A DNA stretch of 64,000 nucleotides, from the IMG/VR virus record IMGVR_UViG_3300010049_000002; one strand, written 5' to 3'. Below the pieces are notes generated by a model, which was not told the origin of the DNA, did not search any database, and saw only the letters and a list, made by a program, of their open reading frames with translations. Below are positions 2 to 62,390 of the stretch, piece by piece (position 1 is the stretch's first letter; each line of letters begins with the position of its first letter). This stretch comes from a virus. The translations under genes and the position numbers were made by a program.

Positions 2-106
2 AAGAGGCGAGCCCGAAAGCCCAACCCCGATACGACCACCCTGGCCGTTCTAGGCGGCGGGGTCGCATTCATCGGCCTTGGCCTCTTCCTTCTCCTGAAG
101 AAGTAG
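2..106 (+). CDS. 3' end of small membrane protein with basic-xNP-TM module (5' end outside window)
   Basis: Frame 2 reads KRRARKPNPDTTTLAVLGGGVAFIGLGLFLLLKK*; same layout as N-terminus of 26478..27164 product (RKENPDTTTILIIGGLVIATGVGVYFLT). Confidence 0.4.
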   Translation, partial: KRRARKPNPDTTTLAVLGGGVAFIGLGLFLLLKK

Positions 107-11484: not shown

Positions 11485-14187
11485 TTATTCAAAGTCCCTC
11501 CATCTAAGCCCGACCTTCAAGTCAATGTCCTGAATGAACTCAACCCCTCCAGGTATTCGCACAGGCTCTGACCAAATCTCTTTTATAGCCTTAGTGGCCT
11601 TGTCGACCTTGTCTTCCGGGCACTCGTACACAGAACTGTCGTACTGATACAGACAATGCCGTATGCCCCCCGGGAGCCGCTGGTCGGTCAGGGCCAGCCG
11701 CTCGTTCATCACGTCGGCCACCCCGCTCTGCACGGGGAAATTAGCCACTTCCTGCGGCTTGGGGAAGTGGCCGAGCCACCTTTTCCGACCGAGGAACGGG
11801 GAACGCAAATAGCCCTGCTCCGAGCACACCTTGATGTTCTCCCGCACGTATTCCCCGTAGCGCCAGTACTTCACCCGGATGGCGTCGATGGCATCCTGGC
11901 AGGTATCCAGGTCGATGGTGAAGCCGTGCTCGAGCAAGTGCTGATGGAGCCGCTCGGCCTCGGCGAGGTAGATGATGGCGAAGCCGCAGTTCTTCGCGAT
12001 GTCTCTGAGTTCCTTCCCCTTGCCTTTGGGGTCCTCCAGGCGTTCCAGAGCGCCGGGCATACCGCCGAACAAAATCTTGGCGTTCGCAGTGTGGATGTCC
12101 GACCTGCAGGCCTCGATAAAGGCCGCGTCGCCGCTCAAGGCGCTAGCAAATCTCATCTCGGATTGCCGCAAATCGTAATAAATCAGCCGATGGCCCGGAG
12201 CGGCGATGTAGATGTCCCGGCATTGGTACTCAGCGAGAGGCTCTTTCCGCTTCTTGGGGTTGCAGGTCTCCTTGTGGGTCATCCCATCGATGAGGGCCAA
12301 ACCGCAACCGGGACAATGCTGAAATCTTGGGATATTCAATAAGTTAGGTACCCGAGCGGAGGGCCGTCCGGTCTCAGTCCCATAACTCCTCCAGTGAGCG
12401 TGAACGCGACAATCTGCCCCTAAATGCAAACCATCTAAATATTCCTTTCTTACGTCATTCGCCGTCCTCCAGGCCATAATCAATCTGGCTAATTGGGCCG
12501 CCTTGTTGCTCCCCATCGCCAGCTTTTCCAGGGTGGCCTTGTTGACGGCCAAGAGCCCGGTCGGGGTCAGCTCTGTCAGATAGGTCGGGGTCTTCAGCTG
12601 CTTGAAGAGGGCCCTGCGCAGGTCCCCCGGCCGGCTGGGTGAGAAGGTCCGCCGGTCGAGCAGGGCCCGCATCTGGCCGAGTAGTGAAGCCGACCGCCGG
12701 CGGAGATGAACGGAGAGCTCCCGCTTCCGCTCCTGGTCCACGAGGAGCCCGTTGACCTGCATCTTCCTACACAAGAGCGCATGCCTCATGTCGTGCTCGT
12801 AGACGCGCCTTTCTACACTCAGGTTGTCCTGCATCCGAATCCAGGCCAGAGACCCTAAATGGATATCGGCGGCGCAGTACATGGGTAGGTCCGCCTCGGC
12901 GACCCCAAAACCCCTTACCCCCTTCTCCTCGGAGCCGACCTTGAACTTTATCTTCCAGGGGGCGGAGCTGTTGTAGATGGAGCTGACAAAAGATAGCGAC
13001 TTCGGCTTGTCGCTCGCGAAAGCAAAGTGGGCAATCAACGTGTCCTCGCGCTTGGAGTAGGTCACCCCGAATCGGGCCAAGGCGATTTCATCGAAGCTAG
13101 GGCCGTTGTGGGTGACGACCGTTCGGTCCTTGAGAGCGTCCCGCAAAACGGAGAACATCTCCGGGGCTAGGAACACCTGGTCGGGAGGCTTGGTGAGGAG
13201 AACAATCCGGCTCTTGAGGAGCCTCTTGACCTTCCCCTTGGCCACCCTCTCGATGTGCTGAACGTCGGCCAGCCCGACGCACGTGATTCCAACTTCTAGC
13301 GGGTCAGTTCCGTCCGTCTCGATATCACAGTTGATGACCGGGCCCATCTTGGCCAGGAGCCGTCGAGCCTTCTCCGGGTCGCTCGTCTCGATGAACGGCA
13401 CCGCGTCCTCAAGGGGGAACCCTTCCGGGCCGCTGGCAATCCACCGGGCCATCCTCCCGATGTCGATGCGTAGGACCGGCATCCAGCTATCGGCCCCCCG
13501 CAGAATCATGGCGGGATGAACGCTGGGGATGACAACCCGGCCCTGGAGGGTGGCCCGGCACTTCAGCAACGCGAGGGAATCTCGGGCCGACTCAATCCGC
13601 TCCGGAGATGCTGGCCGCACCTCCAGGAAGGTCCCGTCCCGCTGTACGACCGAGCCCTGGAGCCGGAGCAGGTTCCTCTGGGCGCTCTTTATCGACCCAT
13701 GGGGGATTTCGGCCGCATGCCAGACAAACCCACGGATTCTCATCACCGATGATTTCCCGAGCGTCGGCCGGCAGGCCTCGGAGCCCAGGGTGAGAATCGG
13801 CACCCCGGGGAACTCCCCTAGCTCTTGAGCCAATCGGCCCGCGCAGCAGGGGATGGCGCGCTTCAAAGCTTGGTCGTTGTCGGAGACGCAAAGGGCTGCG
13901 TTGGTGATGTGGCATTCATCGCGACGTAGCCCAGCTTCCCCCAGGCACTCATTGAGCAACCGGCCGCTGGGTCCCTTGAAGGGACCACCGAGGTTCATCT
14001 CATATCGGCCCGGGTTCATCCCGATGATGATGAGCTTCGGGCTCCCGCGAGCGCGCTCCGGGGGAACGGGCTTGGAGCCGCGAAGAGAGCATCGATGACA
14101 CTCAGCTCCTTGAGCCGCCGGCCAAGGGACCTCCGGGGGGTCAGGCGGGATGGCCGCAGAGAGGGCAGACAATCCCGCCGCCGTCAT
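11485..14187 (-). CDS. family-4 UDG-like domain fused to family A DNA polymerase with 3'-5' exonuclease (900 aa)
   Basis: UDG-like GMNPGRYE..GGPFKGPSGRLL, HPAMILRG. Exo DIETDG. Pol motif A DLRQSEMRF, motif B RDIAKNCGFAIIYL, motif C QYDSSVYE. Confidence 0.9.
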   Translation of the reverse strand: MTAAGLSALSAAIPPDPPEVPWPAAQGAECHRCSLRGSKPVPPERARGSPKLIIIGMNPGRYEMNLGGPFKGPSGRLLNECLGEAGLRRDECHITNAALCVSDNDQALKRAIPCCAGRLAQELGEFPGVPILTLGSEACRPTLGKSSVMRIRGFVWHAAEIPHGSIKSAQRNLLRLQGSVVQRDGTFLEVRPASPERIESARDSLALLKCRATLQGRVVIPSVHPAMILRGADSWMPVLRIDIGRMARWIASGPEGFPLEDAVPFIETSDPEKARRLLAKMGPVINCDIETDGTDPLEVGITCVGLADVQHIERVAKGKVKRLLKSRIVLLTKPPDQVFLAPEMFSVLRDALKDRTVVTHNGPSFDEIALARFGVTYSKREDTLIAHFAFASDKPKSLSFVSSIYNSSAPWKIKFKVGSEEKGVRGFGVAEADLPMYCAADIHLGSLAWIRMQDNLSVERRVYEHDMRHALLCRKMQVNGLLVDQERKRELSVHLRRRSASLLGQMRALLDRRTFSPSRPGDLRRALFKQLKTPTYLTELTPTGLLAVNKATLEKLAMGSNKAAQLARLIMAWRTANDVRKEYLDGLHLGADCRVHAHWRSYGTETGRPSARVPNLLNIPRFQHCPGCGLALIDGMTHKETCNPKKRKEPLAEYQCRDIYIAAPGHRLIYYDLRQSEMRFASALSGDAAFIEACRSDIHTANAKILFGGMPGALERLEDPKGKGKELRDIAKNCGFAIIYLAEAERLHQHLLEHGFTIDLDTCQDAIDAIRVKYWRYGEYVRENIKVCSEQGYLRSPFLGRKRWLGHFPKPQEVANFPVQSGVADVMNERLALTDQRLPGGIRHCLYQYDSSVYECPEDKVDKATKAIKEIWSEPVRIPGGVEFIQDIDLKVGLRWRDFE

Positions 14188-23504: not shown

Positions 23505-24059
23505 ATGGGAAAGCCGCACGACTCCCCGGACTGCCCCTGCGCCGCCTGCCGGGAGCGGCTGGACAGCGCCGGGACCGCGGCCAGCTCCCATTGGAGGGCT
23601 TTCCAGAACTATCTCGCCCGTCGCTACGAGTGGGTCCGGCCGCGCCCGAGCCTGTACTCGTCCTGGGTCGTCTTCTCACCCAGTGAGTTGCCTGGCGCCT
23701 GGACCGCGCACGCCCTGGAGTTCGACGTCATCACGCAGGGAAACAGCCCCGAGCACACCTACCAGATGGCGCTCGAGGCGGTCGAGATGGTACTCACCGA
23801 CGACATCGCGCGCGGGGCCGACCCGTTCGCCCGTCGTGCCCCGGACGAGTACTGGGACCGGCTCTTCGACCTCCGGGAGCACGGTGAGAAGGTGGACCCT
23901 TCCATGAAGCTCTCCGAGCTGATGAAGCCCCCTCGCCCATTCGCCGCCCTGGTGATGTTTCGGTCAGGCCGGGACCAGCCGCCGGAAAGCCTTTGGGTTG
24001 GTGAGGTACCAAGCCAGCAAACCGCTCCCGGCGACGATGGCGACCCCAATCGCGACTGA
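23505..24059 (+). CDS. hypothetical protein with HicB/UPF0150-like core (184 aa), tentative
   Basis: AHALEFDVITQGNSPEHTYQMALEAVEMVL resembles the HicB-fold pattern; 3' 96 nt overlap the convergent lysozyme gene. Confidence 0.45.
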   Translation: MGKPHDSPDCPCAACRERLDSAGTAASSHWRAFQNYLARRYEWVRPRPSLYSSWVVFSPSELPGAWTAHALEFDVITQGNSPEHTYQMALEAVEMVLTDDIARGADPFARRAPDEYWDRLFDLREHGEKVDPSMKLSELMKPPRPFAALVMFRSGRDQPPESLWVGEVPSQQTAPGDDGDPNRD

Positions 24060-24491
24060 CCCCCAGGGGAACCCCGGTGGCGGATTCCCCGTCGAGCTAT
24101 TCAGGCTGGGGTCATAAAACGCCTTGTAGTTCCCGTTGTTGAAGGTCGACCAAGGCCCGAAGTTCTGGCCCCCGTTCGGAGCCTTCAGCCAGACCTGGTA
24201 GGCGGCCTGGGCATTATAATTTGGGTCGAGCAGGTTCCCGCCGGAGTCGAGGTCCGGATGGAATGCCACATCGATTTGCCAGAGGCCTTTCGATGGCCCC
24301 TGCACGTTCGGCCCCGTGTCCCCAATCGCTCCGTCGTCGGCGAACCCCTGCCCACACTGCCCCGGGCAGAGACTCGTGTCGCTGGAGAGACATTGGCTCT
24401 CGGCCATGGCAATCGCCGCGGCCATCGCCGGGTCGGGGAACCCAGCTCCAGCCGCCAGCCAGACGAGCTGTTCAATGGTCCAACATCCCAT
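23964..24491 (-). CDS. lysozyme-like/lytic transglycosylase with C-terminal TM anchor (175 aa)
   Basis: AIAMAESQ ... GLWQIDVAFH motifs; C-terminal helix VAIGVAIVAGSGLLAWYL; trimmed to ATG (GAGAGG SD). Confidence 0.7.
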   Translation of the reverse strand: MGCWTIEQLVWLAAGAGFPDPAMAAAIAMAESQCLSSDTSLCPGQCGQGFADDGAIGDTGPNVQGPSKGLWQIDVAFHPDLDSGGNLLDPNYNAQAAYQVWLKAPNGGQNFGPWSTFNNGNYKAFYDPSLNSSTGNPPPGFPWGSVAIGVAIVAGSGLLAWYLTNPKAFRRLVPA

Positions 24492-24517
24492 GGGGCCTCT
24501 CGAACCGGCCAACGTAA

Positions 24518-24584: not shown

Positions 24585-25670
24585 ATGGCCAAGAGAAACC
24601 CCATTGACGGGAGCATCCTGCTGGAGGGGGCGGCAATCGGTGCGCTGGGGTGGACCGGCGGCCAGATGATTCTGAACCAGGCAAGGAACCAGGCCTGGGG
24701 CAGCCCGCCAGGCACGCCGGGAGTCAATCCCATCACCCAGACCGCCCCGGCCACCTGGGCCTCGGGCGCTTTGGGGGGCGCGGGAGTGGGGTTGGGAGTC
24801 GCCGGGCTCGCGGCGGCGGCGTCCGGGGGCGGAACGGAGACGCTCCTCGTCGGGCTCGTCGGAGCGGCGGCGGGCATCTTCGGAGCCATGTCCATCGCGA
24901 GCAACCCCCAGACGGTGGGCCTGGCGGGGCTCGGAGCAAGGAGCCGGCGGCCGATTCCGCCAGTGATGCGGCAACACTCGCCAACCGCTTCCGTGGGCCG
25001 GCGCGCTCCCAGCGTCCGGGAGATGACCCGGGCCCTTCCCCCGGGCCTGCGGGAAAGCCACGGGTATGGGTGCGTCAACTGCCCGGACAACCAACCGGCT
25101 AGCGTCGCTGGACCCTACCAGGGAGCGCACCCGCCGCTGCCTCTGCATCCCTACCATCCCCATTTGTCGCCCCGCACCATGGGGGAGGCGGAGAATGTCC
25201 GGCGATTGCTCCCGCCCGAGCCGTGGACGCCCATGGCCATGATGTGGGACAACGACGATTACAACTTCCCCCAGCAGGCCCAAGCCGCCGCGCAGATGGT
25301 CCCCACATCCGCCGCGCCAACGCCAGGCCCTCCGGCGCAGAACCAGACCGTCGTCCCGGTGGCCCCCGTGCAACCGGCCCCTGGGGTCCCCGCCGGCTCT
25401 GCGGATACCGCCCTCCCGCAGGCCCCAGCCCCTACTACCCCGGTCGGAGCCGCCCCTTGGGCTTCTCACCGCATCGCCCAACAGCATCCGGCGCCCAGCG
25501 TTCCCATCGGAGCGGTGCATCCCGTTCAAAGAATCCCCTTCCAGATGCAGCCGGTGCAGCACACGCCGTTCCCGAACAACCGGATAGCGGCCCAGCATCC
25601 CGCTCCATCGGTGCCCATCGGAGCCCCCGGATATCCGGCCGGGAGCTGGGAAGCCTACCACCGGCGATAA
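24585..25670 (+). CDS. membrane protein with N-terminal KRNP-TM module and Pro/Gln-rich tail (361 aa)
   Basis: MAKRNPIDGSILLEGAAIGALGW; AAGGAG SD; repeated HPAPSVPIGA segments. Confidence 0.6.
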   Translation: MAKRNPIDGSILLEGAAIGALGWTGGQMILNQARNQAWGSPPGTPGVNPITQTAPATWASGALGGAGVGLGVAGLAAAASGGGTETLLVGLVGAAAGIFGAMSIASNPQTVGLAGLGARSRRPIPPVMRQHSPTASVGRRAPSVREMTRALPPGLRESHGYGCVNCPDNQPASVAGPYQGAHPPLPLHPYHPHLSPRTMGEAENVRRLLPPEPWTPMAMMWDNDDYNFPQQAQAAAQMVPTSAAPTPGPPAQNQTVVPVAPVQPAPGVPAGSADTALPQAPAPTTPVGAAPWASHRIAQQHPAPSVPIGAVHPVQRIPFQMQPVQHTPFPNNRIAAQHPAPSVPIGAPGYPAGSWEAYHRR

Positions 25671-25671
25671 A

Positions 25672-25989
25672 ATGCGCCGAGCTCTCTCCAGAAAGAAGAA
25701 TCCCCCCTCCTCCGCCGAGGCGGTGCTGGGTGTCCTGGTCATGGCCGGCTTTGGCGCCGCGGTGGCGGCGGGGTCTTCTGCGCTCGCGGGCGCAACCACC
25801 CAGGCGACTCCGAAGACCAGTGACCTCGCCGTGATGGGCGCTGCCATCGGGACCGCGTGGGGCGGCATCACCGAGGGTTTGGCCGCCGGGCGGGGGGAGT
25901 ACATGATTCTGGGGTTGGCGCTTGGTGGTGGGATTGTCTTCGCGTTCAAACAGAGCCAGGGGCAGAGCGCTCCACCCCCGGGGGCTTGA
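25672..25989 (+). CDS. small multi-TM protein with RKKNP-TM module (105 aa)
   Basis: MRRALSRKKNPPSSAEAVLGVLVMAGFGAAVAAG. Confidence 0.55.
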   Translation: MRRALSRKKNPPSSAEAVLGVLVMAGFGAAVAAGSSALAGATTQATPKTSDLAVMGAAIGTAWGGITEGLAAGRGEYMILGLALGGGIVFAFKQSQGQSAPPPGA

Positions 25990-25992
25990 GCG

Positions 25993-26481
25993 ATGCCCCT
26001 GATTCATGGCTATTCGGATGCCACCCGGTCGAAGAACATCAAGAAGCTCCGGCGGGAGGGCTATTCGTCCAAACAAGCCTCCGCCATTGCGTATCGGGTC
26101 CAACGGCAAGAACTGAGAAAGCACCACATGTCCACTCGGAAGCTGGCCAAGCGTTCTCGGGACAAGCCTCGAGCTCGAAGACGCAAGGAGGCCAAGGAGA
26201 ATCCCTCCCCCGCGATGGATACGGCCATCAAGTGGCTCGGGGGTGGGGCGTTGGTGGGTGGCGCTCTGGGAGCCTTCGTCGGCATCGGCGCGGGGCCCAC
26301 CAACAACACGATAGCTTCCGCGATGGGTGGAGCCGCATCAGCGGTGGGGCTGGTGGCGATAGGGGGCCTCGTCTACGGCCTGGTGGAACCCAAAGACCGC
26401 GATGCCGCCTTCGCCACGGCAGGCCTCGGGCTCGCTGGGTCCATCCTCCTGGGCGTCATCACCAACATGAGGGGCATATGA
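25993..26481 (+). CDS. basic N-terminal (KQAxAIAY motif) protein with KENP-TM module (162 aa)
   Basis: SSKQASAIAYRVQR; ..RARRRKEAKENPSP..WLGGGALVGGALGAFVGIGAG. Confidence 0.55.
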   Translation: MPLIHGYSDATRSKNIKKLRREGYSSKQASAIAYRVQRQELRKHHMSTRKLAKRSRDKPRARRRKEAKENPSPAMDTAIKWLGGGALVGGALGAFVGIGAGPTNNTIASAMGGAASAVGLVAIGGLVYGLVEPKDRDAAFATAGLGLAGSILLGVITNMRGI

Positions 26482-27164
26482 GTCGGCGACGGAGCAGCAG
26501 GCGGGTTCAGAAGCGGAAAGAGAACCCGGACACGACGACCATCCTCATCATCGGGGGGCTCGTGATAGCTACCGGTGTCGGGGTCTACTTCCTCACCCGG
26601 CCCCAGCAACAGCAGAATGGGGGCGGCAACGGTGGAGGAGGCGGGGGAGGCAATAATCCCCCGCCCCCCACCGGCATCACCTACGGCGGCAATACCTTCA
26701 GCCTGACCGACGTCTGCGCTCGAGCGGGCCAGACGGCCGCCCAGACCGGAGCTGACCCGAGCATCTGGGCCGCGCTCTGCCAAGAGCACGGAGGCACACC
26801 AGCTCCTCCACCGACAACCCCGCCGCCGACCAACACCCTGCCCCCCGCAGCGTCGACCGCCACCGACTCCACCGTCGTCTGGACCGACCCCCACGGCGTT
26901 CCGTACACGCGCCTGCAGGCCTGTCAGCTGTCGATTGTCCCTGGGGGGTACGGCGGCAAGACACCAAGCCAGTGGTACGACCTCTGCTCGTCGAACGGCG
27001 GGTCGGGGCCGACTATGGTCGGTGTCAACGATAACACCGTCGTCTATGGGCCGGACCCGGGGGGCGTCACCTATACGCGCAAGAAGGCCTGCCAGCTGGC
27101 CCAGGGCGGCGGTACGTTCTGGCCGGCTCTTTGCAAAATGTACGGCGGCACCCCAGGACCCTGA
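26478..27164 (+). CDS. KENP-TM anchored protein with three 2-Cys repeat domains (228 aa)
   Basis: MSRRRSSRRVQKRKENPDTTTILIIGGLVIATGVGVYFLT; three C..(W/F)..LC...GG(T/S) units; ATGA coupling. Confidence 0.65.
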   Translation: MSRRRSSRRVQKRKENPDTTTILIIGGLVIATGVGVYFLTRPQQQQNGGGNGGGGGGGNNPPPPTGITYGGNTFSLTDVCARAGQTAAQTGADPSIWAALCQEHGGTPAPPPTTPPPTNTLPPAASTATDSTVVWTDPHGVPYTRLQACQLSIVPGGYGGKTPSQWYDLCSSNGGSGPTMVGVNDNTVVYGPDPGGVTYTRKKACQLAQGGGTFWPALCKMYGGTPGP

Positions 27165-27166
27165 CC

Positions 27167-27637
27167 ATGAGCAAGAGAATCCAAAGAAGAAAGAGCAAGG
27201 AGAACCCCAACGTCGTGCCGATGTTGGTCATCGGGGGGCTGGTCATCGCCGCGGGGGTGGGCGTCTACTTCCTCACCCAGCAACAATCTGGAGGGGGAGG
27301 AGGAAGCTCTACCCCGAACATCTCCGTCCAGGGCAAGAACTTCACCCTTGCGCAAATCTGCGCGAACGCGGGTCTGCCCCAGAGCCAGACCAACGTCGAC
27401 CCGGCGACCTTCGCCTCGCTCTGCACCCAGCATGGGGGGACACCCGCCGCCGCGCCGACCGGCCCCAACATGACCGTGGCCAAATTCCCGAATGGCACCG
27501 TCAACGTCACCCGGGCGATGGCCTGCGGGTGGGGCAAGTTCGCACAGACGGCGCCCACCGGCTCCATCGCCGGGAAGACCTACGCTCAGTGGGCAACTCT
27601 CTGCACGCAAAACGGCGGAACGGTAGGGGGGAGCTGA
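27167..27637 (+). CDS. KENP-TM anchored protein with two 2-Cys repeat domains (156 aa)
   Basis: MSKRIQRRKSKENPNVVPMLVIGGLVIAAGVGVYFLT; paralog of previous gene. Confidence 0.65.
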   Translation: MSKRIQRRKSKENPNVVPMLVIGGLVIAAGVGVYFLTQQQSGGGGGSSTPNISVQGKNFTLAQICANAGLPQSQTNVDPATFASLCTQHGGTPAAAPTGPNMTVAKFPNGTVNVTRAMACGWGKFAQTAPTGSIAGKTYAQWATLCTQNGGTVGGS

Positions 27638-27638
27638 G

Positions 27639-28202
27639 ATGGCGAGACGCAAATCGAACCCAATCAGCAATACCACCTGGCTCCTGGTTGGGGGAGGGGT
27701 GCTGGTGGTCGGCGGTGTCGCGTTCTGGGCCATGACCCGCAGGACGACCCCTCCACCTGGGGGGCCGCGGAACTTCACCCAGAGCACCGGCGGCGGATGT
27801 GACCCAGGCTACGTGCTAGGGCCCGATGGCAACTGCTGGGCACCGTGCCAAAACGGGAGCGCGCCTGATGCCAACGGGTGCTGCCCGGAGGACTACCAGA
27901 ACGGCAACTGCGGCGGAGGGGGAGGCGGTGGCGGTGGCGGGCAGGTCTACGATGACAACACGGTGGTCGGGACCGATGTGAATGGGAATAATGTCACCAG
28001 GTGGCAGGCCTGCCAGTGGGCCGTGCAGTATGCGACCAACTCGATAGCGGGCAACACCAGCGACAATCTGAACAAGGCCGGGCTCCTGGCCGGGGCGTGT
28101 CAGGCCTTCCAGGGAACCTTCAACGCGCCGTTCGGAGTCAGCCTCCAGATTCAGACCCCGCCGATTGGGGTTCTGCAGTCGAATCTGCCGACGGCCCCCT
28201 GA
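27639..28202 (+). CDS. KSNP-TM anchored Cys-rich protein with poly-Gly run (187 aa)
   Basis: [32 protein letters not shown]; G10 run; one 2-Cys unit. Confidence 0.6.
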
Positions 28203-28205: not shown

Positions 28206-28772
28206 ATGCCGCTTGAGAAGGACCCCGCGCTCCAGTATTTGGCCCGGCTGGCGCTGGCGAGGAGCGGAATGCCTGGCCCACCGGGACCTCCGGGGCCGCC
28301 GGGCGAGCCGGGCGAGGATGGGCCCCCGGGCATCGATGGGCCCCCCGGAGAACCAGGCCAGGATGGGCCCCCCGGGCCTCCGGGTTTGAACGCCGGCAAC
28401 ATCATCGGTCCGGTCAGTAACACGTCCGTCGCCACCAGTGTGTCATCAGCCTCTATCGACCTCCCAGGGCCCTCTGGATATATGCCTCGTAGCTCCGGGA
28501 CTGTCCTATTTTGGGCCACGGTCAACGGCACGATGGATGCAACTCCAGGGTTCATCGTCCTGGACGTCCAGTTAGATGGGGGGACAGTAGTATCTTCCGC
28601 GAGGACCGGCGGGACAGTGATACCGAACGGCGTATTTACCGTAGTCAATCTCGGGACCGCTCAACTTCCGCTGGATGGGAGTCCTCACTTCTTGAGAGTT
28701 GCTTCAAGCACCACGGCCGGAACCTACACCGTCCAGGCCGGCAGCCTCACAATTTTCGCTGTCGAGCTCTAA
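28206..28772 (+). CDS. collagen-like (GXY) fibre protein 1 (188 aa)
   Basis: [40 protein letters not shown] then beta-rich head; N-terminus [18 protein letters not shown]. Confidence 0.75.
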
Positions 28773-29308
28773 TGCCGCTCAGTGACGAGTACCTCACCAA
28801 GCTTGCGGTTGGAAGACCGGTGGTTCCGGGACCCCAGGGTGCTCGGGGTGTTGACGGCACTCCAGGCAACCCAGGCGCGAACGGCGCTACAGGGATACCG
28901 GGCGAGGATGGAAATCCAGGGCCCGCAGGTGAGAGCACGGCCAACTACCTATTTACGGCGCAGAACACGGCTAGCAGCGGAACGAGTATATCGACAACTA
29001 CGGTAAACTACACATCCCACGGCTCTGGTATCATCATCGTATGGCTCATGGCCAATATCGCTAGGCTGGTGGAAAGCGCGACACAAGGGTCATTGACGAT
29101 AAGGCTCTATGTCAATGGATCAGGGCAGCCAGTTAAATTTGTGCGATTTGATGCTGTCAATGGGATACGTGGGGCGGGTCAGATTTTCTTGTGGGTGGTG
29201 GCGATAACCACAGGAAGCACCGCAGCCTTTTATGCGAATGCATCGGGTACTTTGACAACAAATGCCCAACTCGGAAACCTGAGACTTCTCGGCCTGGAAT
29301 TGACCTGA
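28772..29308 (+). CDS. collagen-like (GXY) fibre protein 2 (178 aa)
   Basis: GPQGARGVDGTPGNPGANGATGIPGEDGNPGPAG; start overlaps previous stop (TAATG). Confidence 0.75.
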   Translation: MPLSDEYLTKLAVGRPVVPGPQGARGVDGTPGNPGANGATGIPGEDGNPGPAGESTANYLFTAQNTASSGTSISTTTVNYTSHGSGIIIVWLMANIARLVESATQGSLTIRLYVNGSGQPVKFVRFDAVNGIRGAGQIFLWVVAITTGSTAAFYANASGTLTTNAQLGNLRLLGLELT

Positions 29309-32292: not shown

Positions 32293-32568
32293 ATGCTCTC
32301 CCGCGCACAACGACGCCTCATCCGCCAGACCATCGGGTCGGCCCCAGCCCCACCGCCGGCTCCGCTTGAGAGGGCGGGCTACTCAATAGCCGAGGCCGCT
32401 CAGGTGGTAGGCGTCCGGCCGGCGACGCTCCGGCGGATGGTCGAGCGCTACGCCCAGGTCGAGGGCGACGAGGTCGTGTCGCGCTTGACCGGCATGACCG
32501 TCAGAAAGCGCGGCGGCCTGGGCCGGTGGGTCGTTACCCTCGACCCGTGGCTGAAAGGCCCGGCCTAG
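32293..32568 (+). CDS. helix-turn-helix DNA-binding protein (91 aa), excisionase/regulator-like
   Basis: YSIAEAAQVVGVRPATLRRMVERY; converges on and overlaps serine recombinase stop. Confidence 0.5.
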   Translation: MLSRAQRRLIRQTIGSAPAPPPAPLERAGYSIAEAAQVVGVRPATLRRMVERYAQVEGDEVVSRLTGMTVRKRGGLGRWVVTLDPWLKGPA

Positions 32569-34181
32569 GCCACCGCCGAGAGTTCAATGGTTCGTTCAAC
32601 AGCCCTGCGGCTACTGTTCAAACCATTGAAGTCGACGTCGCAGCCGGCCAGGCCTGCGTAGGTCCCCGTCCCGTGGAGCTTCCAGGCTCTTTTCCCTTGG
32701 ATTGTGACCAGGCTTGCCCGGAGCCGCTGGCCGCCCAGCAGGACCCGGACAGCCTCCGCGGCCTCGCGGCCCCCCTTGGCCAGGCTCTGGCGCAATTGCT
32801 CGGCCTGCTTCTCCAGGTTGGCGACGAGCCTTCGGGCATCCAACTCCGGAGGGCCAGCCTTCAACCGCTCCAGGCTCTTCTCCAAGGTCGCCAGCCGCGC
32901 CTTCTCCTTGTCCAAAGCCTCGTAGATGTCCCCCCGGTGGGCTTGTGGGGCGGTGGCGACGGCGTCGATGAGGTTGGCCTTGCGTCTCTTGGCGCTGGTG
33001 ATTTCCGCCTCGATGCGCTTTCGGTCGTCGGCCCGCTTGGGGGTCGTCCGGAGCTCCTTCCGGAGCCGGTCGCAGGTCTGCTTGATTCGTTCGGGGGTCA
33101 GCATCCCCGCCGCCATTTCGATGACCGCCTTCTCGACCCGCCAGGCGACACGCATCCCGATGCCAGGACAGGCTTTGGTCCGCGTGTGGTTGCAGTGATA
33201 AGACCGGGTGGGGCCGGAACCGGTCGCCGCGATACACCCCCCGCAGAGGCCGCAGGCGATGACGCCCGAGCAGACGTTGAACACGGTCCCCTTTCGCTCG
33301 GTGAAGTGCCATGGCCTGTTGGTCCGAGCGTGCGCCATCGCAGCCTCGAGGCGGGTGATTTGCTCCGGGGAGAGAATCGCCAGGTCCGGGAGCTCGTAGC
33401 GCTGGCCGGAGAACATCCGGTACCCCCGGTAATACGGATTCTTCAGGACGAACAAAACAGAGCTCATGACCCAGGGCCCCTCGGCCGACCGGAGGCCCTC
33501 GTCATTCAGGATGATGGCTGTCCGCCGGTAGCTCTCGGTCTGGAGGAACACATCGAAGAGCCGGCGGACGACAGCTAGCTCCGGCTCGTGCTTGACGGCC
33601 CATTTGCCGGGCCGGTCGCCAGTGCCCCGTGCGTCGGCGATGGTCACGGTTTTGAGCCGGTAGCCGAATGGCGGTTTGCCGGTGGCCCGGCCCTCGTTGG
33701 CGCGCTTTTGCAGATTCTCCTTAGACCGGTAGCTCGCGGCGAGTCTCTCTCCTTCGCCCCGGAAGCTATCGACGGTCGTCAGAAGCAGGTCGGGACCGCG
33801 GATACCGACCTCCTTGCCCTCCCGGTACTTCCAGACCTTGACCCCCACGGCGTGTAGGTCGCTCAGGATGGCGATGGACCGGTGGGCCTCGAGGCGCGAT
33901 AGCCGGTCGAGGGCCCGGACGACGATGACGTCGAACTCTCGCCGTTTGGCCGCCGCCAGCATCGCCTGGAGCGCCTTGCGTTCCTCGGTGCCGCCCGAGA
34001 CGCCGTCGTCGACGTAGACGTGGCCTTCATCGAGGCGCCACGCCTGGGCGGCGATTGCCTCGCGAGCGTTCTCCTCCTGGACCCGACAGGATTCGATGCC
34101 TAGCTGCTGGCCGCGAAGGTCCTCCTTGGAGAGACGTACGTAGATGGCGGCCCGGAGGGCGGTGGTCGAGGGCTTGTTCAT
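32565..34181 (-). CDS. large serine recombinase/integrase (538 aa)
   Basis: AAIYVRLSKED, DDGVSGG, VVVRALDRLSR resolvase motifs; recombinase domain, Cys zinc ribbon (CGLCGG..CNH..C), coiled-coil C-terminus. Confidence 0.9.
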   Translation of the reverse strand: MNKPSTTALRAAIYVRLSKEDLRGQQLGIESCRVQEENAREAIAAQAWRLDEGHVYVDDGVSGGTEERKALQAMLAAAKRREFDVIVVRALDRLSRLEAHRSIAILSDLHAVGVKVWKYREGKEVGIRGPDLLLTTVDSFRGEGERLAASYRSKENLQKRANEGRATGKPPFGYRLKTVTIADARGTGDRPGKWAVKHEPELAVVRRLFDVFLQTESYRRTAIILNDEGLRSAEGPWVMSSVLFVLKNPYYRGYRMFSGQRYELPDLAILSPEQITRLEAAMAHARTNRPWHFTERKGTVFNVCSGVIACGLCGGCIAATGSGPTRSYHCNHTRTKACPGIGMRVAWRVEKAVIEMAAGMLTPERIKQTCDRLRKELRTTPKRADDRKRIEAEITSAKRRKANLIDAVATAPQAHRGDIYEALDKEKARLATLEKSLERLKAGPPELDARRLVANLEKQAEQLRQSLAKGGREAAEAVRVLLGGQRLRASLVTIQGKRAWKLHGTGTYAGLAGCDVDFNGLNSSRRAVERTIELSAVA

Positions 34182-45781: not shown

Positions 45782-46168
45782 CTAAACGCTGGAGCCGCCC
45801 CCGCCCGCGTCATTGGGATTGGGCGGAAGACACGAGCTGGTCTCCATGCTGTAGGTCCAGCCGGGGTCGCAGTACGGGATACAGGACGCGCTATCGACGT
45901 CGTAGACCTCGCCCTGGTCACAGGCCGGGGGAGCGCAGGAGCTCGTCGAGGGGTCGAACGTCCAGCCCGAGTCGCAGTTCTGGGTCCCCGTAGCCGGGGG
46001 CCGGTTCGGGGGATTCTGCTTGGCCGGGACGGACCCGGGCGGGCCGCCTCCTCCCCCGGTCTTCTGCATGCCTGTATAGATGAGATACCCCACCACTCCA
46101 GCCGCAACGAGGCCCCCCGCGATGAGAAGCCCGTTGGGGTTCTCTTTGGCTTTCCTGGAGCGACTCAT
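45782..46168 (-). CDS. KENP-TM anchored Cys-rich protein (128 aa)
   Basis: MSRSRKAKENPNGLLIAGGLVAAGVVGYLIY then Cys-rich ectodomain. Confidence 0.6.
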   Translation of the reverse strand: MSRSRKAKENPNGLLIAGGLVAAGVVGYLIYTGMQKTGGGGGPPGSVPAKQNPPNRPPATGTQNCDSGWTFDPSTSSCAPPACDQGEVYDVDSASCIPYCDPGWTYSMETSSCLPPNPNDAGGGGSSV

Positions 46169-47026: not shown

Positions 47027-47220
47027 GCAAACCGGGCCTTCTCCTCGGAGAGGCTCAAAACCCTCAAGGGGTTTCCCTGGAGCCAGGCCAAGTCCTGCTC
47101 TGCGAGGGGACGCCTCCAGCCGAGGGGGGAGACAGCCTGGAGCAGAGCAAATTGCCGGCCTCGAGCGACGCCGATGTTGGCCCGTCCTCCCCACCGTCGG
47201 AGCCGGCTGGTCCACCTCAT
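47023..47220 (-). CDS. hypothetical basic protein (65 aa)
   Basis: ATGA coupling at both ends (GroES stop 47217; next start 47026). Confidence 0.4.
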   Translation of the reverse strand: MRWTSRLRRWGGRANIGVARGRQFALLQAVSPLGWRRPLAEQDLAWLQGNPLRVLSLSEEKARFA

Positions 47221-48781: not shown

Positions 48782-48820
48782 CTTCGTCATCCTTTCAAAG
48801 AGTCGTTGGAGGGGCCCCAA

Positions 48821-49954: not shown

Positions 49955-50012
49955 TCTCGGCTCCTTGGCTTCTCGGGCAACTTCTCGGTGCCAGGTCAGT
50001 GACACCCTCCAG

Positions 50013-51544: not shown

Positions 51545-51556
51545 ATCATCGCTCCA

Positions 51557-52357: not shown

Positions 52358-52373
52358 CGGGGTCGCTCAGAGC

Positions 52374-53843
52374 TCAGAGGGCGAACTTGATTCCGACGCA
52401 GGCGAAGATGGCATCCCGCAGGTCGGCATTGGACGACAGCTGCGTGTACCAGTCCTGGCTGACTTCGAAGCCGCGGATGGGCAGGGTCAGTTTCAGGTCG
52501 CCTCCCTGGAAGATGACCCGCTGGGCATCGACCTGCTGGGCGGCGTAGGTGCTAGCCTCCATCGTGGCCTCGAGCATCACCGTATTGACGCTGGTGAGGT
52601 TCGGGTCGTTGGTCCAGGTGAAGTCGGCGTTCCAATTGAGGTCTGGGGTGATGGCCGGAGGCGTCTGCCCGCCCAAACCTTGGGTAATCGAGAGGAATTG
52701 CCTCATCTGGTCGCCCTGCACGGAGTCGGTTTCCTGGAGGAAAATCCCAATCGGCACCCCTCGGGGAATCACATACGGAACGCACATCTTGCGGAACTCG
52801 GAGTTGCCCCGAAGCATGGAGCGGAGGTCCATCCCGCCGTAGGTCGCCGGGACGAGCTCGAAGTGCCGATTCGGGTTGAAGACCCCGAGGTTGACCGTCG
52901 GGTTGGCGTCGGTGGGCGGAGCCGCGAGAGGGTTCTGGATGCTGCTGGTGCTCCCCGACCTAACAAAGTCGACCGGCATGAAGTTCAAGGCGCTCCCCAG
53001 GGCGTCGTATCGCTTGTTCACATTCGAGACGAACGTCACGGTGTCGACTTGGGAATTGGACGCTGACCCCTCTTGGGCGTTGGGAGGCATGTAGGCCGTA
53101 TGCCTAAGCTGCTCGTCCATGATGTTGACGTGCTGGCCAATCTTCCAACGGTAGTTGTAGGCTCGAGCGAGGTGCCAGCCGACGTAGTTGGCCCACCATC
53201 CCCACCGGAGAATCGCCGGAACGAAGCTCATTCCCACATTGGGGCCATTGGGGTCAAACAATGCCCCGTTGAAGTAGTCGTTGCGGGTGAACACGTCCGG
53301 GCTGGGGGGCTTCTGGCCGCCCTGGGTCGGATGGTCGACCGCGTTTCCAATCACGGTCCAGCAGAGGGGCTCGGGCTCGATATGGAATCCCACATAGCAG
53401 GCCACAAAATTTACTTGAGTTTGACCCGTCTGGGCCATCGTGGTCTCGACGTAGTCAATCCCGAAGGGTGATTTCCCGCTTCCGAAGAGGTCAATCTCAG
53501 CGCCGAAGTTGACGGTGATGCTCTCGTCGACCTGGGGCCCGGTCATGGTCCAGCGGACTTGCTCAATCACGTCCATGTTCCACACGGGCGTCTGGCTAGA
53601 CTGCTGCATGGCATCGAGGATGGACCCCGCTCCCACCCTCAATTGCTCTGCGGTGCGAATCCGGCTCAAGTCGATGGCCACGCCGGCGCCGACCTGGTAG
53701 CGGTTGGCCGGCCGCTCCCGCACAACGGGCTTGGTCACCCGCGGGGGAACGGGACGCGTCTCCCATTGCTTCCTCACAAAGGGCGGCCTGGCGAGGGCCC
53801 GGCTGGGCTGGGCGGGACGATGTGCTGCTGCTCCAACTTTCAT
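52374..53843 (-). CDS. large virion-module protein, capsid candidate by size and position only (489 aa)
   Basis: Largest non-repetitive structural-block ORF; no family recognised by eye. Confidence 0.55.
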   Translation of the reverse strand: MKVGAAAHRPAQPSRALARPPFVRKQWETRPVPPRVTKPVVRERPANRYQVGAGVAIDLSRIRTAEQLRVGAGSILDAMQQSSQTPVWNMDVIEQVRWTMTGPQVDESITVNFGAEIDLFGSGKSPFGIDYVETTMAQTGQTQVNFVACYVGFHIEPEPLCWTVIGNAVDHPTQGGQKPPSPDVFTRNDYFNGALFDPNGPNVGMSFVPAILRWGWWANYVGWHLARAYNYRWKIGQHVNIMDEQLRHTAYMPPNAQEGSASNSQVDTVTFVSNVNKRYDALGSALNFMPVDFVRSGSTSSIQNPLAAPPTDANPTVNLGVFNPNRHFELVPATYGGMDLRSMLRGNSEFRKMCVPYVIPRGVPIGIFLQETDSVQGDQMRQFLSITQGLGGQTPPAITPDLNWNADFTWTNDPNLTSVNTVMLEATMEASTYAAQQVDAQRVIFQGGDLKLTLPIRGFEVSQDWYTQLSSNADLRDAIFACVGIKFAL

Positions 53844-53912
53844 GGCTCGATTTCCTTGGTAGAGCCGCCTACCCCACGGGCTCAGGCGGGTTTATTGCTC
53901 GGGAGTCGAAAC

Positions 53913-55619
53913 TCAGTCCCCGCCCTCGTCCGGGTATCCCCAGGTGAACGGGTTGAACTTGGGTTGCGGGGGGGCCGCCATGCCGTACGGACTCCCGCGA
54001 AGGGTCTCGGTGATGGCCGCGCGCGGGGGAGGGGGAGGCGGCGGTGGAACCGGCGGAGCGGTGGCGGGCACCGGCGGGAGGTTCACCTGCTGGGGAGGAA
54101 CCGCGGTCGGGGGAGGGGGAACGGTATTGGCGGTTGCCACTTCCCGGGGGAGTGAAGGCCAAGCGGCCCCAACTCCCCGGGCGGGATATCCAACCCCATG
54201 ATGGGAATGGGGCGCTCCGTGGCCGGCGGCTCCGTGACCGCCGCAGCCGGGGCAGGGATTGCCCGGCCCGCACCCACCGCATCCAGCCTTTTGAGGAGCT
54301 CCCAACGCTCGAATGGGCGCCCGCCGGCCCAACCCGGCGCTGGGGAGTTGCGGGCCAGTGGTGGGGAGCGTCCCACCCTTGACCGTCTGGAGGAGATTGG
54401 CGCGCATCTCTCCGTCGAAGAGCTGCTGGCCCATGGGGCTGGTCATGGTCATGGCCGCGAGGCCGTCGATGGCCATCTTTCCGAAGATGCGAACTCCGGC
54501 GCCATAACCGGCTATCGTCAATCCCGTCTTGAGGCCGGGCCCCTTGGCGAGACCTGCCCCACCCCAAAAGAGCAAAAGAACCCCGCCCGCCACCAGCATG
54601 CGCATGGGCGAGGCCCACATGGGCGCGGCTATCGCGGTGGGGTTGTAGAGGCCCTCATAAGGGCTCCCCGTGGGTCCCCGGGGGTCGGAGTAGATGACAT
54701 TCCCCGTGGAGTCCTTCTGCCCCGAGTCTTGGAGGGAATGGGTTGTGGCGAACCGGTCGACGATGTCGCCGACCATGAAGCCCGCCAGGGCGCTGAAGAA
54801 GTGCCCGACGTACTCGCCCTTTCCCTCGAGCGGATTCTCCAGGGTCGCGTGGGAGGAATGGCGCCGGTAGCGGCTAGGGTTCTTGCGCCGGCCCCGTCGA
54901 CGTTCGCTCGCCGGGGGACGCTCGGGGCCGTAGTGCGTCTCGTGCTCGATGGTCGCCCCGTGCGTGCCGTGCATCTTCGCGGGCGCGCGCCTCTTCTTCT
55001 TCCGGTGGCTCGACTTACCGCTCCGGCCTCGTGTGAATTGGCCCTTCTTGTTGCGCTTGGGGCCTCGGCCGGAGCTTCGTTTGCCGACCTTGCCTTTGCC
55101 CTTCCTGCCCCTCTTTCGACGTTGCCAGCCGAGCCTCGCCGCCTTCGCGTGGGCGGAGCGGTTGCCGTGCCAGGCCTCCCGCGCTCCGCTCTTCTTCTTC
55201 TTTTTGTAGGCCTTGCGCTTTCCCTTGCTGCGCTTGATGAAGCGGCCCTTGGAGTCGCGCTTCATGCGACCCGCGTGGCGCTTGCCCTTTCGACGCTGAT
55301 GGCCCTTGAGCGCGGCTTTGCGGTGGCCGGCCCGATTGCCGTGCCAAGCCTCCATCGCTCGACTGCGCCTACGACGCGAGGAACGACGGGGCTTCTTGCT
55401 CCCGGATTCGCTGGCCCGGGAGCTTCCCCGGCGACGAGCCGTCCGGCGCTTCCTGGGCTTCTCTCCGGCCCTGGCCCTCGAGGTCCGGCCCCGGCGCCGG
55501 GCGGTCTTCACCCGAGGCTTCTCACTGGCCTTCGCCCGACGGGCAGCCCTCGCCTTGCGGAGGTTGCGCATGCTGGCCTCGCGGGCTCTCGCGCTCTGCC
55601 GGCGCTTGGTCTTTGCCAT
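53913..55619 (-). CDS. hyper-basic (Lys/Arg) N-terminal domain fused to membrane domain and Pro-rich tail (568 aa)
   Basis: Trimmed to MAKTKRRQSA (GAGGA SD; motif copy lies upstream). Duplicated EAWHGNR..H.KAA..G.QRRK motif. RKNP and LENP precede hydrophobic segments. Confidence 0.6.
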   Translation of the reverse strand: MAKTKRRQSARAREASMRNLRKARAARRAKASEKPRVKTARRRGRTSRARAGEKPRKRRTARRRGSSRASESGSKKPRRSSRRRRSRAMEAWHGNRAGHRKAALKGHQRRKGKRHAGRMKRDSKGRFIKRSKGKRKAYKKKKKSGAREAWHGNRSAHAKAARLGWQRRKRGRKGKGKVGKRSSGRGPKRNKKGQFTRGRSGKSSHRKKKRRAPAKMHGTHGATIEHETHYGPERPPASERRRGRRKNPSRYRRHSSHATLENPLEGKGEYVGHFFSALAGFMVGDIVDRFATTHSLQDSGQKDSTGNVIYSDPRGPTGSPYEGLYNPTAIAAPMWASPMRMLVAGGVLLLFWGGAGLAKGPGLKTGLTIAGYGAGVRIFGKMAIDGLAAMTMTSPMGQQLFDGEMRANLLQTVKGGTLPTTGPQLPSAGLGRRAPIRALGAPQKAGCGGCGPGNPCPGCGGHGAAGHGAPHSHHGVGYPARGVGAAWPSLPREVATANTVPPPPTAVPPQQVNLPPVPATAPPVPPPPPPPPRAAITETLRGSPYGMAAPPQPKFNPFTWGYPDEGGD

Positions 55620-55696
55620 CACTGTTCCTCGAGTTGGCTTGCCTTGGGCTCCTTTCCTTTCAGAACCAGACGCTACGCTGGCCTTTAGTGTCTCCT

Positions 55697-55709
55697 GACG
55701 GGACACGGG
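55697..55709 (-). promoter_or_regulatory. heptad-repeat motif copy (CCCGTGTCCCGTC on minus strand, preceded by TTGACG)
   Basis: 78 nt upstream of ATG 55619. Confidence 0.5.
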
Positions 55710-55834
55710 CGTCAAGGACCGGGGGTTGACTTTCCCTTGGGAGCCCTGGGGGGCCTTGCCGGACGCGGCATACTCGGGGCCCTCCTCCCGGTTCTCGTCC
55801 AACATCCTTTGGTAGTCGGCCACCCCCCGATGGT

Positions 55835-55860
55835 GTCACGGGACACGGGTAAGGTCACGG
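55835..55860 (-). promoter_or_regulatory. heptad-repeat motif cluster (CCGTGACCTTACCCGTGTCCCGTGAC on minus strand)
   Basis: Gap after 55855 gene stop. Confidence 0.5.
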
Positions 55861-56415
55861 CTTGACGAATCCGCGAGCGTTCAAGACTGACCCCCGGGGG
55901 AGCTGAATCCGCCACCACCGGCCCCGACGGTAGAGCGTCACCCTTCCGTGATTGAACATCCCCTGGCCGAACCCGTGGTGATACCGGCCGGGGTGCGACC
56001 TTCCCCCGCGCGTGTAGTAGATATCGGTCACCGTCCCGACCCGTTGCCACCCTTGGAGCCCCCGGGGGGGAACTTTCGCGCTCCCGACCTTGGCCCGATA
56101 GCCGGACCCGAAGTAGGCCTGGGCATCATCATCGGGCGGGGCTCCCCGGTGGCCGCGAGCAATCGGCCCGAAAAGAACCGAGTTGCGGGGCCAGGCTTTC
56201 CCCTCCGGGTCGTGGAGCATGGTCCCGGGGAGAGTCACCTCCCGGCCATCGGACAAATCCACGAACACATTGCGCCCTTTGGCAATCAGCCGGCGGCGCC
56301 TCGGGGCCGTCTCGAGACCGACGGGATTCTCACGCCCTTCCCGAGAGACCAGCCAAGCCCCGAGCCCCAGGACCACGAGCGCCCCGATGACCAGCGGCAC
56401 CGAGCTCTGAGCCAT
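55855..56415 (-). CDS. N-terminally anchored protein (186 aa)
   Basis: MAQSSVPLVIGALVVLGLGAWLVSREGRENP. Confidence 0.55.
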   Translation of the reverse strand: MAQSSVPLVIGALVVLGLGAWLVSREGRENPVGLETAPRRRRLIAKGRNVFVDLSDGREVTLPGTMLHDPEGKAWPRNSVLFGPIARGHRGAPPDDDAQAYFGSGYRAKVGSAKVPPRGLQGWQRVGTVTDIYYTRGGRSHPGRYHHGFGQGMFNHGRVTLYRRGRWWRIQLPRGSVLNARGFVKP

Positions 56416-56418
56416 GGC

Positions 56419-60883: not shown

Positions 60884-60896
60884 GGCTTGCTCCTTT

Positions 60897-61937: not shown

Positions 61938-62390
61938 CTATGGTGGTACCGGCGTGATGGCGGTCGCACCATAGGGCAAGGTCGTGGGGATGGGCATCTG
62001 CGTACCGTTGTAGGTGAGGGTCACATGCCAGTCGGAACCCACCAGAGTCGCGCTGTTGGTCCAGGTCCAGGGAGAGCCGACCTGCTGGACCTCCGATGAG
62101 ATGACAGATTGCCCCCCCTGCCCGACGACGGACGCGGGGATGGTCAGGACGTAGCTCGTCCCGGGAATCAGGGCGTTCAGCGGGGTCTGGAACGTGGACC
62201 CACCGCCGCCGGCATCATTGGGATTCGGGTTCGGACCGCTACCCCCATTGGACCCCGGGGATGTCTTCCGGGTGGCCAGATAAATCGCTACCCCGCCGAC
62301 GAGCAGAACCCCGACACCGATGGCAATCCAGACCTCGGTACTTGGATTCTCCTCCCGGCTCCGGGCTCGGGCTAGATGTCGGCGGGGCAT
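61938..62390 (-). CDS. EENP-TM anchored protein (150 aa)
   Basis: MPRRHLARARSREENPSTEVWIAIGVGVLLVGGVAIYLA. Confidence 0.6.
   Translation of the reverse strand: MPRRHLARARSREENPSTEVWIAIGVGVLLVGGVAIYLATRKTSPGSNGGSGPNPNPNDAGGGGSTFQTPLNALIPGTSYVLTIPASVVGQGGQSVISSEVQQVGSPWTWTNSATLVGSDWHVTLTYNGTQMPIPTTLPYGATAITPVPP

Follow-up and report, generated by a model that had tools for sequence, protein, structure and literature searches.

An N-terminal basic, Asn-Pro and transmembrane-helix module shared by membrane proteins of a soil virus-like element

The DNA analyzed here (the window) is a stretch of 64,000 nucleotides from the IMG/VR virus record IMGVR_UViG_3300010049_000002. It covers nearly the whole of a 65,174-bp metagenomic contig and represents a nearly complete element of about 65 kb, of bacterial type. 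The window is 65% G+C, and its open reading frames (ORFs) were called on the basis of GC3, the G+C content of third codon positions. About ten of its genes, several of them consecutive, encode proteins in which a cluster of Lys and Arg residues is followed by an Asn-Pro dipeptide (NP) and then by a Gly-rich transmembrane (TM) helix. This basic-NP-TM unit is called the module below, and the genes, which are listed in Table 1, are designated by their first coordinate.

The window was scanned in six frames for at least three K/R within 12 residues, followed by NP, then by no more than 12 residues and by a 17-residue uncharged hydrophobic window. Eight matches, and no others, were obtained: 2..106, 25672, 25993, 26478, 27167 and 27639 on the plus strand, 45782 and 61938 on the minus strand. 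All eight are located in GC3-supported ORFs, near the start of the protein. A preliminary description of the locus had assigned the layout to six consecutive genes. Five of them were recovered by this strict scan, although in 25993 the module is internal, its Asn being residue 70. The sixth, 24585, is only a weak member, with two basic residues and a Glu inside its hydrophobic stretch; it shows weak similarity to the membrane domain of 53913 (E=0.065), to which it is possibly related. The further copies then proposed (2..106, 45782, 61938, an internal one in 53913 and a reversed one in 55855) were confirmed by the scan or by translation. The coordinates given at that time translate correctly, with the correction that the fifth gene of the series starts at 27167.

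Table 1. Genes of the window carrying the basic-NP-TM layout or a variant of it, and the putative capsid gene
Feature	Coordinates	Strand	Description
Module-only protein, 3' part	2..106	+	41 residues, 5' end beyond the window edge; full-length P0001 is MKSRKLAKRRARKPNPDTTTLAVLGGGVAFIGLGLFLLLKK; NP codons 23-28
SLT_3 lysozyme-like protein, reversed order	23964..24512	-	C-terminal Gly-rich TM directly followed by NPKAFRR
Weak or variant member	24585..25670	+	MAKRNPIDG, Gly-rich helix with Glu, further hydrophobic helices, Pro-rich tail
Module protein	25672..25989	+	MRRALSRKKNP-PSSAE-TM, then a second hydrophobic region; no Cys
Internal module	25993..26481	+	47-residue phrog_2423 domain, basic cluster, KENP, three Gly-rich hydrophobic helices; NP codons 26200-26205
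Module protein	26478..27164	+	MSRRRSSRRVQKRKENPDTTT-TM, Gly/Pro stalk, three 2-Cys repeats (6 Cys)
Module protein	27167..27637	+	MSKRIQRRKSKENPNVVP-TM, Gly stalk, two 2-Cys repeats
Module protein	27639..28202	+	Cys-rich ectodomain, 8 Cys; in-frame stop 5 codons upstream of Met
Module protein	45782..46168	-	MSRSRKAKENPNG-TM, Gly/Pro stalk, 6-Cys ectodomain
Putative major capsid gene	52374..53843	-	489-codon ORF
Core gene with internal layout	53913..55823	-	K/R-rich region, L-ENP (NP codons 54836-54831) directly before the first hydrophobic helix, membrane domain, Cys-/Pro-rich tail
Reversed order	55855..56415	-	N-terminal TM, 5 residues, RENP (N codon 56328), RRRR
Module protein	61938..62390	-	MPRRHLARARSREENPSTEVW-TM, stalk, Cys-free beta-rich-looking ectodomain; in-frame stop 3 codons upstream of Met

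When the NP requirement was dropped, a basic cluster followed by a TM segment was found 28 times over the six frames. NP was present in 8/8 of the anchors belonging to real genes and in 0/20 of the remaining occurrences, most of which lie in non-coding frames. As the dipeptide has a frequency of 0.0040 in the window proteome, the chance of meeting it in a 13-position linker is about 0.05 per anchor, which gives P ~5e-11 for the eight anchors together; per-tail shuffling gave a joint probability of ~5e-8. In the proteome of the window, NP is 1.78-fold over-represented and SP, TP and DP are not. The codons of the dipeptide vary synonymously (AAC or AAT, then CCC, CCG or CCA), so that the constraint acts on the protein and not on the DNA, and a DNA- or RNA-level cause is ruled out. 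The module is a real, non-random, protein-level feature of proteins whose C-terminal domains are mostly different.

The same layout was observed in small ORFs of related loci, at 1-5 copies per ~20 kb, for instance as MRRRRGRRNPTGTTWAVLGVG, MARRRARANPGVDVWLALGAG and MRRRARRNPTLPTWALVLGG. A profile made from twelve modules was then compared with 1.84 billion representative proteins (E<=0.001). This search, which the preliminary description had called for, returned 161 clusters at 50% identity, nearly all of them small proteins (median 122 residues) matched from residue 1. The basic-NP-TM order was present in 145/153 of the sequences inspected, an upper estimate for reasons given below. Their consensus reads M-A-R-R-R-R-x-A-R-(E/K/R)-N-P-(S/D/T)-T-T-T-W-L-L-I-G-G-G-V-x3-G-V-G-x-Y-(F/Y)-L-T-(R/K) and continues into a stretch rich in Ala, Pro, Thr and Ser. 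The 14 residues preceding NP contain 5.7 K/R on average, with an R:K ratio of ~4:1, and the immediate flank is semi-conserved (A at -3, R/K at -2, E/K/R at -1). The Asn falls within the first 25 residues in 120/145 sequences, and the hydrophobic span extends from +6 to +23. A DNA pattern for N-P-S-T-T-T-W-L run on IMG/VR gave 8 matches, all spurious, in wrong frames or on low-GC contigs.

Conservation of the dipeptide in homologues from related elements was followed in samples not biased towards it. With the part of 53913 downstream of NP as query, 16/16 orthologues for which upstream sequence was available have NP directly before the first hydrophobic helix, at 32-44% identity and usually as A-M-E-N-P. 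All three orthologues of 55855 that possess the TM segment (in loci L001, L002 and L007) keep TM-x5-(K/R)(E/D)NP, as KENP or RDNP. When the eight ectodomains were compared by tblastn with the related loci, a single match was obtained, a homologue of the 26478 ectodomain, and it has kept NP; a search for an NP-blind family with the 26478 ectodomain only returned the query itself. Of the profile matches that would be retrieved even without NP, only one was a real NP-less sequence (P0174, with NG), a ratio of ~18 to 1. The conservation expected in the preliminary description was thus borne out.

The regions that follow the helix contain much Ala, Pro, Thr, Ser and Gly and hardly any charge. BLAST sorted 113 such regions into at least 69 unrelated families, in agreement with the earlier statement that the domains after the helix differ; that statement does not hold for 26478 and 27167, whose ectodomains are paralogues (E=3e-19) and whose 2-Cys repeat forms the largest family. 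The number of Cys after the helix is even (two or more) in 42 proteins and odd in 3, which points to disulfide-bonded, exported domains. Since, in addition, the basic residues are confined to the upstream side of the helix, an N-in/C-out topology is suggested, with C-termini that would be exported. In the copies of the window, the helix is followed by Gln/Gly/Pro stretches and AxA is absent. Seventeen members of 66 residues or fewer, including the 41-residue protein of the window, consist of the bare module. These cargo-less forms indicate that the module does something by itself, beyond serving as an address label. One short motif, NPNDAGGGGS, is common to 45782 and 61938, where it forms the C-terminus of one protein and part of the stalk of the other.

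Other N-terminal anchors of the lineage have short Lys tails (MKKxTK-TM) and no NP, as in MKKTTKRVLWIGG and MTKKEKTLALGV. Their coexistence with the module shows that anchoring or insertion does not need NP, and it upholds the earlier argument that a plain positive-inside anchor would not conserve the dipeptide. The 2-Cys family includes P0004, which lacks the Arg tail as well as NP and whose start is secured by an upstream stop; this indicates that the two elements travel together. The C-terminal anchors with basic tails encoded in the same structural block are mostly without NP.

Among the variants, 25993 begins with 47 residues (25993-26133) that match phrog_2423 (E=2e-17, function not known), and a head of this type also precedes the basic-NP-TM unit in the relatives P0203, P0215 and L032. 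The product of 53913 has 636 residues and a net charge of +99. It is composed of a conserved acidic head, a K/R-rich region of ~300 residues, ENP, a multi-helix membrane domain, a CGGCGPGNPCPGCGG stretch, poly-Pro and a conserved NPFxWGY-like C-terminus. Its gene is always found directly upstream of the putative capsid gene, and the protein is a candidate membrane-tethered genome-condensing protein. The lysozyme-like protein 23964 carries its anchor at the C-terminus, a tail-anchored arrangement that is unusual for a muralytic enzyme of a phage.

No family corresponding to the module was detected in Pfam, NCBIfam or PHROGs, and no description of the motif or of the lineage was found in literature searches, which agrees with the earlier remark that no signal of this form was known. 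When ten structural-block proteins and ten module proteins were compared with PHROGs, nothing was obtained except phrog_2423 on the head of 25993. The existence of the module, its conservation, its shuffling onto many ectodomains and its absence from the libraries searched are established by these results.

Several known signals were compared with the module and rejected. In a Tat signal, the consensus S/T-R-R-x-F-L-K applies; here the Arg run leads into (E/K/R)-N-P-S-T-T-T where x-F-L-K would be expected, and no NCBIfam Tat model matched at E<=1. A type IV pilin (class III) signal, defined by Gly at -1 of its cleavage site and Glu at +5 of the hydrophobic segment, was discarded in view of the lack of a conserved Gly-Phe or Glu+5 and of any pilin-type NCBIfam match. 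As regards the lipobox L-(A/S)-(G/A)-C of lipoproteins, no position between -14 and +33 has Cys among its five most frequent residues, and the modules of the window are Cys-free before the ectodomain. The FlhB/YscU-type autocleavage motif NPTH occurs in 1/153 sequences and NPGP, as in the 2A-like D(V/I)ExNPGP, in 0/153.

The preliminary description had likened the layout to C-terminal sorting signals. The LPXTG/sortase, PEP-CTERM/exosortase and GlyGly-CTERM/rhombosortase systems do combine a motif, a Gly-rich TM helix and a basic cluster on unrelated passengers. However, the defining features fail: the module is N-terminal and in mirrored order instead of C-terminal motif-TM-basic, and its motif lies on the basic (cytoplasmic) side. 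The NCBIfam matches to LPxTATN, LAVTG and PVV-CTERM cover the helix only and remain at 12-17 bits for cut-offs of 27-32. In the proposed check for a co-occurring enzyme, no protease, sortase-like enzyme or insertase was detected among the ~70 window proteins scanned against Pfam, many small ORFs having no detectable family. A weak transglutaminase-core mark (precomputed, Pfam) is present on homologues of 57433; given the C-terminal anchor of 57433, this domain would lie on the membrane side opposite to the motif.

Signal-anchor-release (SAR) domains, which are fused to phage endolysins or pinholins and released on depolarisation, resemble the module: they too are phage-encoded N-terminal anchors that start with basic residues and whose helix has an unusually high content of Gly, Ala, Ser and Thr. 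Unlike them, the module has strong aromatic belts and a high Leu/Ile/Val content, its cargoes are not muralytic, and the sole lysozyme of the element is anchored at its C-terminus; a SAR domain was accordingly rejected. The oligo-Arg segment can also be compared, by sequence alone, with the short disordered Arg-rich N-terminal arms of icosahedral capsid proteins, a likeness paralleled by the basic region of 53913; the module arms, however, are borne by a membrane helix in place of a jelly-roll shell domain.

The closest likeness is to type II signal-anchors, such as those of phage i-spanins and bitopic bacterial proteins, which have an N-terminal positive segment, one helix of ~20 residues and an exported C-terminal domain. 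In the module, a positive segment directly precedes a single ~20-residue helix near the N-terminus, and the Cys parity and uncharged post-TM regions suggest a non-cytoplasmic C-terminal domain. Generic signal-anchors have no conserved sequence, whereas the module displays an invariant Asn-Pro, fixed Gly, Trp and Tyr positions, an Arg-rich arm and a stand-alone form. We regard it as a well-defined variant of a signal-anchor.

The reading that we favor, with a probability of about 0.5, is that of a conserved, evolutionarily mobile and uncleaved type II signal-anchor module of ~40 residues, with a cytoplasmic N-terminus and an exported C-terminus. An AlphaFold2 prediction on the module alignment gave coil for residues 1-18 and helix for residues 19-40, with NP at 16-17, two residues before the start of the TM helix. 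This position makes a role as helix start or hinge the more economical reading. An Asn N-cap, a Pro at N1 and a first turn with hydroxyl residues constitute a textbook helix start, and the paralogues 59001, 59981 and 60897 also open a helix with (F/S)NPxxAxFYK.

For the topology, the virion location, the partner of the arms and the reason for Asn-Pro specifically, we infer the following arrangement. The Arg-rich arm, with 5-6 positive charges on average, would stay at the cytoplasmic face. The near-invariant Asn-Pro would close the arm and start the helix, as N-cap or hinge, and would lead into a first turn rich in hydroxyl residues (S/T-T-T) and an interfacial Trp. The helix, of 18 residues, would present two Gly clusters at a distance of seven residues, and Tyr-Phe/Tyr would form a belt at its far interface. 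Beyond it, a low-complexity stalk of Ala, Pro, Thr, Ser and Gly would lead to an optional small ectodomain, probably often disulfide-bonded. In this way, a single membrane, most likely that of the virion, would receive a family of proteins through the module. In the protein 53913, the same basic-E-N-P-helix junction joins the K/R-rich region to the membrane domain, and this suggests that the Arg arms and the basic domain probably lie on one membrane face and meet a partner of the same type, for which DNA, anionic lipid and an acidic protein layer are candidates.

The internal-membrane phages PRD1 (P7/P14/P16/P18/P20/P22/P32/P34) and PM2 (P3-P10) possess small virion membrane proteins. The element would resemble them by its ~ten small, mostly single-pass membrane proteins among structural genes, its membrane-linked transglycosylase and its collagen-like spike-type proteins. 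It differs from them by the lack of PHROG or Pfam similarity and by a genome 4-6 times larger; in addition, neither an A32/FtsK-type packaging ATPase nor a recognisable double jelly-roll capsid protein was found.

Several observations weigh against an uncleaved signal-anchor. In a generic helix cap, Ser-Pro, Thr-Pro or Asp-Pro should be acceptable too, yet Asn-Pro is found almost exclusively; this strictness, together with the semi-conserved flanks, points to something more specific than capping. In 55855, its orthologues and the lysozyme, NP lies on the C-terminal side of the TM segment, where it cannot be an N-cap. As to the virion, no packaging ATPase or recognised capsid protein was identified in the window, the capsid assignment being derived from non-significant fold matches, and by analogy with PRD1, budding into the cytoplasm would place the arms against the shell and not against the DNA. 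Finally, the profile search is biased towards NP, which contributes ~15 bits, and only 18/140 hits survive a change of NP to SA. The proportion of 145/153 hence overstates the conservation of NP, and the unbiased samples are small.

The same strictness speaks for a sorting signal. It is possible, although we consider it unlikely, that the juxtamembrane (A)R(E/K/R)NP is bound on the cytoplasmic face by a capsid, matrix or scaffold protein or by the 53913 product, so that about ten membrane proteins are gathered into the virion, much as alphavirus E2 tails dock onto the nucleocapsid. The demand for Asn-Pro itself and not for any helix cap, the semi-conserved flanks, the presence of the motif beside basic clusters on either side of TM helices, the many unrelated ectodomains, the 3-10 copies per genome in one lineage and the coexistence of anchors inserted without NP are all consistent with such a signal. 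However, no partner was identified, and the cargo-less modules and the mostly NP-less C-terminal anchors of the structural block do not fit. Lone copies of the module are also found in L023 (the 170-kb contig Ga0502761_0000101) and L031 (a 35.5-kb Logan contig), where no homologue of the lineage core genes was detected within 10 kb. Ten L023 proteins gave no match in PHROG, and both contigs may represent further types of virus or mobile element.

A bolder proposal can be put forward only tentatively, as we doubt that it will hold: the (A)R(E/K/R)-Asn-Pro junction would be a dedicated viral signal, either a virion-incorporation motif recognised by a capsid or matrix partner or a self-cleavage site releasing oligo-arginine peptides in assembly or entry, and would mark the membrane proteome of undescribed membrane-containing bacterial viruses without recognisable capsid or packaging genes. 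The targeting, insertion or processing signal suggested in the preliminary description is supported in part. The layout on which it was founded is real, conserved and absent from the libraries; bare modules exist and no processing enzyme was found among the window proteins scanned, and nothing obtained here shows the module to be a sorting or cleavage signal.

A historical accident appears improbable. Under this explanation, a single ancestral anchor was duplicated and shuffled, and NP, without a specific role, has merely not yet mutated. The modules can indeed be aligned as a single family in which Gly, Trp and Tyr positions are conserved, and tandem paralogues exist. On the other hand, NP has persisted while flanks and ectodomains diverged beyond recognition, the third codon positions of the dipeptide vary, and both the distant 53913 orthologues and the profile hits findable without NP retain it, as described above.

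Equally improbable is a Sec-type signal peptide that is cleaved and has an n-region of unusual length, rich in Arg and including NP, by which the ectodomains would be freed into the periplasm. A basic N-terminus and a hydrophobic core followed by small residues (Ala/Ser/Thr-rich after the helix in many members) are indeed observed, and the cargo appears to be exported and of the disulfide type. In spite of this, a hydrophobic span of ~18-22 residues with aromatic belts at both ends corresponds to a TM anchor and not to an h-region of 7-15 residues, the window copies have no AxA after the helix, and stand-alone modules would leave no mature product.

The weakest case is that of a processing site, very improbable in our view, in which Asn cyclisation or some protease would cut the Asn-Pro bond and free an oligo-arginine peptide of 7-16 residues, with Pro as the new N-terminus: the invariance of both residues is as bond-specific chemistry would need, Asn-dependent maturation cleavages are known in viruses, the freed peptide would resemble arginine-rich membrane-active or DNA-condensing peptides, and FlhB/YscU and reovirus mu1 (N42|P43) also have an invariant Asn-Pro in a membrane-associated or viral protein, but known N|P autocleavage needs a folded, strained loop whereas the motif here is in predicted coil directly before a TM helix, NPTH and NPGP are practically absent, cleavage in 53913 and 25993 would detach large conserved N-terminal domains from the membrane, and no protease was found among the window proteins scanned.

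On a conservative reading, the module is a new conserved domain family of 161 clusters with at least 69 passenger domains and merits a profile in the domain databases. Its Arg-rich start, Asn-Pro and Gly-rich helix provide a sequence handle with which the membrane proteins of widespread soil virus-like elements of 60-82 kb can be listed. Recognition of the Asn-Pro junction by a partner, or its cleavage, would make it the first sorting or processing signal reported at the N-terminus of membrane proteins in phages, and would open membrane acquisition in such viruses to direct tests. The presence of the ENP junction on the +99 protein, whose gene is adjacent to the putative capsid gene, hints at a way in which genome and membrane may be coupled in these elements.

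The element encodes a DUF5906 primase-helicase, SNF2, AAA_24, PD-(D/E)XK, RadC-JAB and GroES proteins, an SLT lysozyme and two collagen-repeat proteins. The regions 11485-14187 (-), 32565-34181 (-) and 43374-44780 (+) correspond to a family A DNA polymerase, a large serine recombinase and a tyrosine integrase; a uracil-DNA-glycosylase-superfamily (UDG) domain is fused to the N-terminus of the polymerase. No tRNA gene was found in the window and no terminase or packaging ATPase was recognised, Walker A motifs being restricted to the AAA_24 and DUF5906 proteins. At least five C-terminally anchored proteins are also encoded which, added to the module proteins, make the element unusually rich in bitopic membrane proteins.

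The conserved core among relatives consists of 57433, 55855, 53913, 52374, 51557 and 50648, together with GroES and the integrase. The block 50648-58602 gave no match in PHROGs or Pfam. GroES/Cpn10 (47217-47540, minus strand) is kept throughout the lineage, in each case a few kb downstream of the capsid block. More than 214 homologues of 52374 were found, all unnamed and many of them on soil and peat metagenome contigs of 60-82 kb. The AlphaFold model of its product (predicted local distance difference test, pLDDT, 77.6) is beta-rich. Foldseek returned nothing at E<=0.001 from PDB and BFVD; the best neighbors, papillomavirus L1 and other jelly-roll capsid proteins, were non-significant (E ~0.008-0.1). 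On these weak fold neighbors, 52374 is regarded as a putative capsid protein and may represent a new capsid-protein family.

No GenBank phage was matched by megablast of 20-32 kb or by tblastn of the putative capsid protein. Single-protein searches for related loci with SNF2 and PD-(D/E)XK, in which near-identical 8-mers only were scanned, gave no relatives. Taxonomic labels among the database matches were limited to Polyangiaceae for one 2.3 kb contig of a metagenome-assembled genome and Chloroflexota for one protein. The lineage apparently consists of undescribed, abundant soil virus-like elements of bacterial type.

Right after the six-gene module cluster, two tandem genes (28206-28772 and 28775-29308, plus strand) encode collagen-repeat (G-P-P/G-x-y) proteins with similar C-terminal beta-rich domains, which are candidate fibres. 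The three consecutive paralogues 59001-60131, 59981-61018 and 60897-61289 (minus strand) share an N-terminal unit of their own, M-x(3-5)-(F/S)NP-x(1-3)-A-x-FY(K/R)-x-x-(L/V)A(L/V)A, followed by Ala-rich and beta-rich domains; it may be a shared attachment helix for spike-type proteins. Finally, the adjacent ORFs 47786-48820 and 48821-50005 (minus strand) have extremely charged, low-complexity products, one with 101 K/R and 123 D/E in 344 residues, the other with RD/RDD/DRR repeats and Tyr-Gly-rich stretches, and a long ORF also runs on the opposite strand.

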